A stretch of DNA of 47,543 nucleotides, from IMG/VR virus record IMGVR_UViG_2721755644_000004; one strand, written 5' to 3'. The position numbers were made by a program, and so were the translations under genes. Of the stretch, positions 28,045-28,939 are shown piece by piece. Source of the stretch: a virus. Taxonomy: Duplodnaviria > Heunggongvirae > Uroviricota > Caudoviricetes. The notes beneath the pieces are model-generated. The model made no database searches. It was not told the DNA's origin and saw only the letters and a program-made list of their open reading frames with translations. Every line of letters begins with the position of its first letter. The first letter of the stretch is position 1.

Positions 28045-28935
28045 CTAAATACGCACTTTAAGATAAGTCAGCCCCGGATGAAGCCAGTAAGCCGGCACTT
28101 TTTTAAAGGGTGGAGTATTAAAATCACGAAGAAGAGCCTCCCGCACAATTGCATCCTTATCAGCACCACTGGCCAGCGCTTCAATCTCAGCAGCTACCTG
28201 CAGATATCCCATGCAACGGCCAACGCGCTTCATCAGCCCCTGCTTTTTATTGTTCTTCAGGTAATCAATGGCAAATTCAATGAGCTCCTCACTGTGCTGG
28301 TGCGATGGAGGTGTTACTTTCCCATTTTCTGAGATGGTTATTTTCCCAGCATCACCGGATACAACAAAGGATGGCCGGTTACACTCCCATTCCGGGTCAC
28401 TGAAATTATCATTATGAATACTGAAACACTCTGCGAGATTTCTGCTCATCACTTTCCGACAATAATCGTCAAACGCAGCAAACTGCTTTTCATCGCCAGA
28501 AGGCACCAATATCGACCATTTCTTATTCAGCTCAACGACGTAGCTCTCCAGTTTTTCAATACGTGATTCAACATCATCTTTTTCTGACCGCAGTGTTGAC
28601 GGCGGCATCTTCAGAGAACAAGTAATTCTTCCCGGTAGCTTTCCTTTGTAGGTTATCAACACATCCTGCGCCTCTAAAATTACGGGGCGCTTTTCCGGCA
28701 ACGGACCATCCCCTTCACATAACCCGGCAGCAACATCCATGAAAAACTGCTTCGCCTGCTTTTTCGCCTCAGCTTCGTAAAACTCCAGCGTGGCACCTTC
28801 AGTACGGTCAAGACTAATCGCCACATCTGGCAACAACAGCGACGCTTGCCCGTCACCTTCCGGCTTCACAGTAACAGTAACCTTATCCCCGTAATTATTT
28901 ATCCCCTTAACAACCAGTTCATATTTTTTATTCAT
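28045..28935 (-). CDS. Unknown soluble 296/297-aa protein wedged between pinholin and endolysin (lysis-cassette cargo)
   Basis: Starts GTG/ATG 1-4 nt after the holin stop with GGGGAGAG SD; no TM, no signal peptide, no domain recognised by eye. Confidence 0.7.
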   Translation of the reverse strand: MNKKYELVVKGINNYGDKVTVTVKPEGDGQASLLLPDVAISLDRTEGATLEFYEAEAKKQAKQFFMDVAAGLCEGDGPLPEKRPVILEAQDVLITYKGKLPGRITCSLKMPPSTLRSEKDDVESRIEKLESYVVELNKKWSILVPSGDEKQFAAFDDYCRKVMSRNLAECFSIHNDNFSDPEWECNRPSFVVSGDAGKITISENGKVTPPSHQHSEELIEFAIDYLKNNKKQGLMKRVGRCMGYLQVAAEIEALASGADKDAIVREALLRDFNTPPFKKVPAYWLHPGLTYLKVRI

Positions 28936-28939
28936 CACT

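Follow-up and report, generated by a model that had tools for sequence, protein, structure and literature searches.

What is encoded by the long open reading frame that separates the holin from the endolysin in a lambdoid lysis cassette, and does its product take part in lysis? The question arises from a stretch of viral DNA of 47,543 nucleotides (IMG/VR record IMGVR_UViG_2721755644_000004; hereafter the window), whose positions 7400..47543 match, with 100% identity, a lambdoid prophage inserted next to potC in E. coli Eco889. An earlier note made from the sequence regarded the gene as an unknown insertion with no recognisable motif, in a slot where Qin has a ydfR of about 100 aa, and proposed three roles for it: a lysis-timing regulator, an abortive-infection or exclusion factor, or a host-modifying cargo protein. 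Literature searches on ydfR with holin, on essQ with rrrQ and on DUF1327 returned no functional study other than that of Göpel et al. (2026; PMC13232886), which concerns the short K-12 homologue.

In this study, the gene was compared with protein families, with related lysis cassettes and with complete E. coli genomes. On the basis of these sequence comparisons, it is almost certainly a member of the YdfR/DUF1327 prophage family, of full length and with all three modules. The family is already catalogued, without an assigned function, and is ordinary in occurrence. The gene is an old accessory gene of the late operon, neither a new insertion nor a core lysis component.

Lysis cassette and coordinates of the gene

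The gene and its neighbours are as follows.

28045..28935, minus strand: long-form YdfR-family gene, 296 aa from ATG plus the stop codon (ORF list and sequence)
28945..28948, minus strand: GGAG Shine–Dalgarno sequence of the YdfR-family gene, within the last holin codons and 9 nt from the ATG (read from the sequence)
28940..29155, minus strand: S21-type class II holin (pinholin), 71 aa, starting MYQM with Met at codons 1 and 4 (PF04971, E 7e-33; class II holin in RefSeq)
29194..29222, minus strand: terminator-like hairpin with a 12-bp stem and a T run, about 40 nt upstream of the holin start
27475..28008, minus strand: SAR-type phage lysozyme, 177 aa, with a hydrophobic N-terminus (PF00959, E 3e-24)
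27136..27318 and 26990..27121, minus strand: two small hydrophobic ORFs of 60 and 43 aa between the endolysin and Rz (maxima of 1.9 and 2.9 in a 19-residue Kyte–Doolittle window)
26520..26978, minus strand: Rz i-spanin (PF03245, E 2e-47; lysis protein in RefSeq)
26582..26767, minus strand: Rz1, embedded in Rz (ORF list)

The frame had been described as a 297-aa gene at 28045..28938, with its own Shine–Dalgarno sequence and a start 1–4 nt past the holin stop, between a pinholin and a SAR endolysin, and all of this is borne out. The in-frame GTG at 28936-28938 would extend the ORF to 297 aa and lies 1 nt after the holin TAA (28940-28942); the ATG at 28935 lies 4 nt after it and is the start in all database copies, giving a protein of 296 aa with the N-terminus MNKKYEL. 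The lysozyme gene begins 36 nt downstream of the YdfR-family stop, and Rz/Rz1 lie further downstream.

On the minus strand, the late region runs from the Q antiterminator through three tRNAs and small accessory genes to the holin, the YdfR-family gene, the lysozyme, the two small hydrophobic ORFs and Rz/Rz1. No promoter-like site turned up on the minus strand between 28940 and 29300 in a consensus scan. The gene has the same orientation as the lysis genes; it belongs to the Q-dependent late operon, consistent with the late co-transcription that had been suggested for it. The hairpin at 29194..29222 is presumably read through by the Q-modified polymerase.

The 296-aa protein is cytoplasmic and, as had been thought, soluble (pI 5.95) and without a transmembrane segment, its maximal hydropathy over a 19-residue Kyte–Doolittle window being 0.75. 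With neither a transmembrane nor a SAR segment, and with no holin-family match in Pfam or PHROG, it does not group with holins, antiholins or membrane lysis regulators. The 60- and 43-aa ORFs are hypothetical in RefSeq and have no Pfam match; they may be extra membrane proteins of the lysis cassette.

Family assignment and domain organization

Residues 2-101 match the Pfam family DUF1327 (PF07041) with an E value of 4e-40 (score 136.4 bits, cutoff 25; positions 1-88 of the 93-position profile), and phrog_1085 is matched end to end (E 2e-188; residues 2-297 in GTG numbering on profile positions 1-296 of 296), so that the description of the protein as lacking a recognisable motif does not hold. 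The motif DR-x-EGA-x-LEFYEA-x-A is invariant in the DUF1327 region. The order of S21-type holin, gene and lysozyme is likewise that of essQ-ydfR-rrrQ in K-12 and of gp43-45 in YYZ-2008. Identical copies of the 296-aa protein are already in public collections, on at least 1000 contigs, under the names 'YdfR family protein', which is used in RefSeq and nr, or 'DUF1327 domain-containing protein' (UniRef example A0A7I0KSZ1_ECO25). No sequence-level difference separates the window protein from the 296-aa phrog_1085 and NCBI 'YdfR family protein' entries, the C-terminal domain of which has no Pfam model.

The YdfR protein of the K-12 prophage Qin (P76160, 103 aa) is encoded in the same slot, between essQ and rrrQ, with a start 4 nt after the holin stop, and has a homologous N-terminal domain: the region of residues 1-74 is 47% identical to the window protein over 78 aligned positions (BLASTP, E 6e-21). 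The contrast drawn with Qin ydfR therefore falls, since the first third of the window protein belongs to the same family and the extra 585 nt encode two further modules. K-12 YdfR consists of the first module followed by an unrelated 29-residue tail, and its gene overlaps rrrQ, whereas the window protein adds modules B and C, approximately 185 residues. Module borders follow from BLAST coordinates and from a 32-member alignment of the family.

28600..28935, minus strand: module A, DUF1327, residues 1-112 (PF07041, E 4e-40; three strands and a long helix predicted; homologous to K-12 YdfR 1-74)
28408..28599, minus strand: module B, a variable, helical, coiled-coil-like linker, residues 113-176 (AF2 helices 119-143 and 149-168, low confidence)
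28048..28407, minus strand: module C, a conserved domain of about 120 aa, residues 177-296 (AF2: three short strands and helices)
28015..28599, no strand assigned: 585-nt indel block, comprising modules B and C and a spacer, relative to A-only cassettes such as that of YYZ-2008 (blastn)

In the AF2 models, module A has pLDDT values of 61-85 over residues 1-70 and module C a pLDDT of 75.7 with a pTM of 0.67; the confidence of the full-length model is modest (56). Module B gave weak GCN4-type matches, and the indels that distinguish the 268-, 287- and 325-333-aa variants fall within it. Module C is marked by the motifs SHQHSE, GRCMGYLQVAAEIE, PPFK, W and PG-x-x-YLK, and its invariant residues are L, G, R, Q, A, P, K, W and Y, a set suggestive of binding or scaffolding rather than of catalysis.

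The remote homology search proposed in the earlier note thus succeeded for module A, as DUF1327, and gave neither a sequence nor a fold match for module C. The latter had no match in Pfam, NCBIfam (noise-level matches only) or PADLOC, no significant PDB profile match and no fold match of its AF2 model in BFVD. PDB sequence-profile searches with full-length, N-domain and C-domain alignments returned nothing significant. Pfam searches with the distant relatives described below, with the alternative C-termini of the 305-, 328- and 333-aa forms and with all members of the C-domain alignment gave only a sub-threshold match to DUF6200, in two of 11.

Two further possibilities were considered for the gene itself. 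No support was found for an isoform from an internal start, and an artefact of gene splitting or fusion is contradicted by the B+C-only forms, which begin at the same post-holin position.

Forms of the gene, prevalence and age of the architecture

The slot between holin and lysozyme is filled in several ways. A-only forms of 103-114 aa are found in Qin (103 aa), YYZ-2008 (gp44, 114 aa) and most Stx1 and Stx2c phages, and an A+B form has 183 aa. A+B+C forms comprise the 296-aa protein and variants of 268, 287 and 325-333 aa (Stx2_95 carries a 329-aa long form). B+C-only forms have 185 or 213 aa, as in Stx2_12E129, and in a 305-aa form A+B is fused to an unrelated C-terminus. In 933W and 434, S is followed directly by R and the slot is empty. 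The earlier view that the gene in this slot is short or absent in relatives agrees with these cases and with a count of phage records carrying an S21-type holin: the long form occurs in 3 of 427, some homologue in 106 and none in 321. Since the gene is missing from 933W, from 434 and from those 321 records, it is dispensable for lysis, and it is not a core component of pinholin/SAR-endolysin cassettes. Intact A-only and B+C-only forms are both abundant; each half therefore probably works alone, and the long form would unite two activities. Rare tandem DUF1327-DUF1327 duplications of 169-207 aa were also seen in E. coli (P0045, P0052 and P0056). In addition, three of the B+C-only cassettes examined have an opposite-strand ORF of 104-118 aa, without a Pfam match, between the YdfR-family gene and the lysozyme gene, which may be a separate moron.

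3145..3459, minus strand, locus L004 (Stx2_12E129): extra opposite-strand ORF
1131..1487, plus strand, locus L015 (ERL06-2442): extra opposite-strand ORF
1167..1487, plus strand, locus L017 (2014C-3338): extra opposite-strand ORF

Some part of the cassette is matched in 4357 of 5426 complete E. coli genomes. Module A occurs in 3042, which is over half, module C in 777 (approximately 14%, including ST131) and the whole block of holin, long gene and lysozyme in 548. Two findings had been named in advance as speaking against the reading of an unknown insertion, namely presence of the gene at this position in most relatives and confident homology to a known structural or lysis accessory family with a housekeeping role. 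The former was obtained, in that the family is present at the slot in those 3042 genomes; the family is, however, not known to have a housekeeping role. In a scan of species-representative genomes, the C domain was found nowhere except in Escherichia and Shigella.

A profile search with B+C over 1.84 billion protein representatives returned 38 proteins. Five distant relatives (P0127, P0128, P0135, P0139 and P0152) have 266-314 aa, with a C domain of 31-43% identity and a leucine-rich helical middle; for P0127 (297 aa) and P0139 (314 aa), the C-domain identity is 34%. The N-terminal domain of these relatives aligns with DUF1327 at a probability of 87.6% (hhalign, E 3.5e-6), and P0128 also matches PF07041 weakly. 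Immediately upstream of the P0127 and P0139 genes is a DUF4406 gene, the stop of which they overlap. In the P0139 locus, the order is Q antiterminator, this pair, then an HP1-type holin, and the same Q-to-holin layout is found for a C-domain-only protein of Salmonella diarizonae (P0183, 165 aa). What the relatives have in common is a late-operon position close to the lysis genes, rather than one next to a pinholin. Loci of the P0127/P0139 type were seen in Salmonella diarizonae and in further enterobacterial contigs (L006, L008 and L009); in the window prophage, a DUF4406 gene lies far off, in the nin region.

The comparison of holin–endolysin spacers that had been suggested did reveal an extra block of 585 nt relative to A-only cassettes, with one breakpoint at codon 112, the other 6 nt upstream of the lysozyme ATG, and with flanks 91-92% identical to YYZ-2008 (blastn). 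However, the distant A-B-C relatives are at odds with a recent foreign insertion. Because the A-B-C architecture recurs in them at about 35% identity, the three-part protein is judged to be old. The long form is more likely to be ancestral and the short forms deletion derivatives than the long form is to be the product of an insertion.

The window gene may also be compared with other accessory genes of lambdoid lysis cassettes, such as ant between R and Rz in 933W and YYZ-2008 and the bor/iss-like lipoprotein gene after Rz, which are likewise non-lysis genes with presence/absence polymorphism. However, bor has its own promoter, whereas the YdfR-family gene has none, is co-oriented with and tightly coupled to the holin and is internally modular.

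Intactness, selection and annotation

In a sample of 80 IMG/VR loci with module C, 78 were not cut by a contig end. Intact genes numbered 29 of the 296-aa form, ten of the 329-aa form and 27 of the 185-aa B+C form; 12 loci were disrupted and two were cut by the contig end. In the 66 intact loci of the 78, the start always lies 3-4 nt after the holin stop. Pairwise dN/dS values (Nei–Gojobori) were 0.15-0.34 for module C (C-terminal 120 codons), 0.31-0.55 for module A and 0.3-0.75 for module B. The values for module C mark it as a protein domain under purifying selection, and with the 66 uncut intact copies they indicate that the gene is more than a chance ORF.

The RefSeq annotation implies otherwise. 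In Eco889, ST131 strain 2822, SCU-171 and 2012EL-2448, the PGAP feature stops after 336 nt and is flagged as a pseudogene ('YdfR family protein, incomplete, missing C-terminus'), and module C is left without any feature. A decaying pseudogene or junk sequence would fit these flags and the 12 truly disrupted copies among the 78 uncut viral-contig loci. Nevertheless, it is very improbable in the light of 296 open codons that are identical on at least 1000 contigs, of the low dN/dS in exactly the part that PGAP leaves unannotated and of the retention of the architecture in relatives of about 35% identity. The PGAP feature spans no more than the 112-codon module A, which is the origin of the pseudogene call; the call is an annotation artefact. 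The miscall (28045..28599 unannotated in the window; also L001, L013, L016 and L018) affects most of the matches listed among the 777 module-C genomes, and the conserved C-terminal domain is consequently invisible to annotation-based studies. Correcting the annotation and building a domain model of module C would be of small but concrete benefit, and modest value lies in the domain dissection, in the evidence for an ancestral long form and in the recognition of a systematic RefSeq miscall.

Possible function

K-12 YdfR is the sole family member with experimental data. A two-hybrid screen that used Rng as the bait picked it up, and in the bacterial two-hybrid system it binds Rne 1-597, the catalytic N-terminal half of RNase E (Göpel et al., 2026; PMC13232886). 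Furthermore, Rne 1-598 co-purifies with Strep-YdfR, as does DNase-resistant nucleic acid with YdfR, and the interaction surface for RNase E maps to YdfR residues 1-72 (PMC13232886). These data concern the 103-aa K-12 allele only and come from two-hybrid assays and co-purification from overexpressing cells, the full-length fusion being positive with Rne 1-597 only (PMC13232886). Over the region containing this surface, the window protein shows 47% identity to K-12 YdfR, and the RNase E link is made here by homology.

The reading preferred here is that the gene encodes a modular, late-expressed effector that would dock on RNase E and act on RNA turnover; a probability of roughly 0.35 is assigned to it. 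In the proposed mechanism, module A would bind RNase E at its catalytic N-terminal half, and perhaps RNA as well, in the manner reported for K-12 YdfR 1-72. Module B may be a spacer or an oligomerisation element, and module C would bind a second partner; the existence of B+C-only forms implies that module C can do without the RNase E-binding module. The protein, made late, would tune the decay of RNA, either host mRNA or the long late transcript, rather than lysis. Overexpression of K-12 ydfR altered few transcripts and caused no growth defect (PMC13232886), which weighs against a physiological effect on RNA decay.

T4 Srd is reported to target the N-terminal half of RNase E, as is YdfR. Together with phiKZ Dip and T7 gp0.7, it belongs to a group of small phage proteins whose binding to RNase E or to the degradosome reprograms RNA decay in infection (PMC4980113). 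The likeness is one of analogy only; sequence comparison showed no relationship, and PDB profile searches that included the Dip structures gave no match. Moreover, those proteins are products of early genes of virulent phages, whereas the YdfR-family gene lies in the late operon of a temperate phage. A bolder form of the preferred reading, in which DUF1327 tethers RNase E, the novel C domain engages a second host or phage target and late RNA decay is reprogrammed, as in a temperate counterpart of T4 Srd or phiKZ Dip, is doubtful.

Of the three roles put forward in the earlier note, host-modifying cargo fits best in view of the binding of K-12 YdfR to the catalytic half of RNase E, and the other two lack positive support, given the absence of the gene from 933W and 434, the lack of a PADLOC match and the harmlessness of K-12 overexpression to growth. 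Nevertheless, the strict post-holin position in E. coli could instead indicate a lysis-linked role. A cytoplasmic factor translationally coupled to the pinholin might bind the charged cytoplasmic tail of the holin, or otherwise adjust the triggering of pinholin and SAR endolysin. Such a modulator of lysis timing would account for the start of all E. coli forms (A, B+C and A+B+C) 3-4 nt after the stop of an S21-type holin, and a published screen, as cited in PMC13232886, tied ydfR to envelope integrity. However, the fixed position is explained equally well by recombination in the flanking holin and lysozyme genes, which are highly conserved, and the distant relatives of the same architecture are not adjacent to a holin: the one downstream of them is of a different class and is separated from them by other genes. 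Lysis-competent phages such as 933W and 434 do without the gene, the protein has no membrane segment and overexpression of K-12 ydfR caused no growth defect (PMC13232886), so that a timing role is judged unlikely.

A function in defence, exclusion or counter-defence, in which a variable accessory protein would block superinfecting phages or neutralise a host defence, is also unlikely. It would suit a mosaic slot that is often swapped, with presence/absence polymorphism and allelic N-terminal variants, as well as the relaxed constraint on modules A and B (dN/dS up to 0.75) and the extra opposite-strand ORF that is often found beside B+C-only cassettes. However, PADLOC-DB v2 gave only a noise-level match to PbeC (E 0.018, 11 bits), on the coiled-coil region, and none for the relatives; the protein has no enzymatic or nucleotide-binding motif, and its gene is co-oriented inside the late operon without a promoter-like site of its own. 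In addition, RNA-seq reads of K-12 ydfR are almost nil under standard growth (PMC13232886), and this silence in a lysogen-like state argues against a defence expressed in the lysogen.

The RNase E lead makes the function testable. If the RNase E-docking reading is true, a late effector is present in one form or another in over half of E. coli genomes. If the K-12 link holds for the long forms, it would show how lambdoid and Stx phages alter the turnover of host RNA late in infection, which would be relevant to Stx and to late-gene expression.

Other features of the window

The region upstream of the lysis cassette and the remainder of the window contain several further features.

29463..29666, minus strand: 67-aa DUF1737 ORF (E 4e-17), intact-looking, just upstream of the lysis cassette; partial pseudogene in RefSeq
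29600..30300: low-GC island (0.29-0.37)
29912..30247, plus strand: IraM-like anti-adapter ORF, opposite to the late operon
30273..30462, minus strand: STnc100 sRNA (Rfam)
31159..31408, minus strand: three phage tRNAs downstream of Q (Arg-TCT, Arg-TCG and one with a CAT anticodon)
34404..34575, minus strand: sok antitoxin RNA, beside hokD (Rfam)
42986..43037, plus strand: DicF (Rfam)
1090..1288, minus strand: IS009 (Rfam)

All four Rfam matches are above the gathering score. The tRNA with the CAT anticodon is assigned to Met by ARAGORN and to Ile by RefSeq, and the IraM-like gene, between Q and the holin, has a moron-like arrangement.
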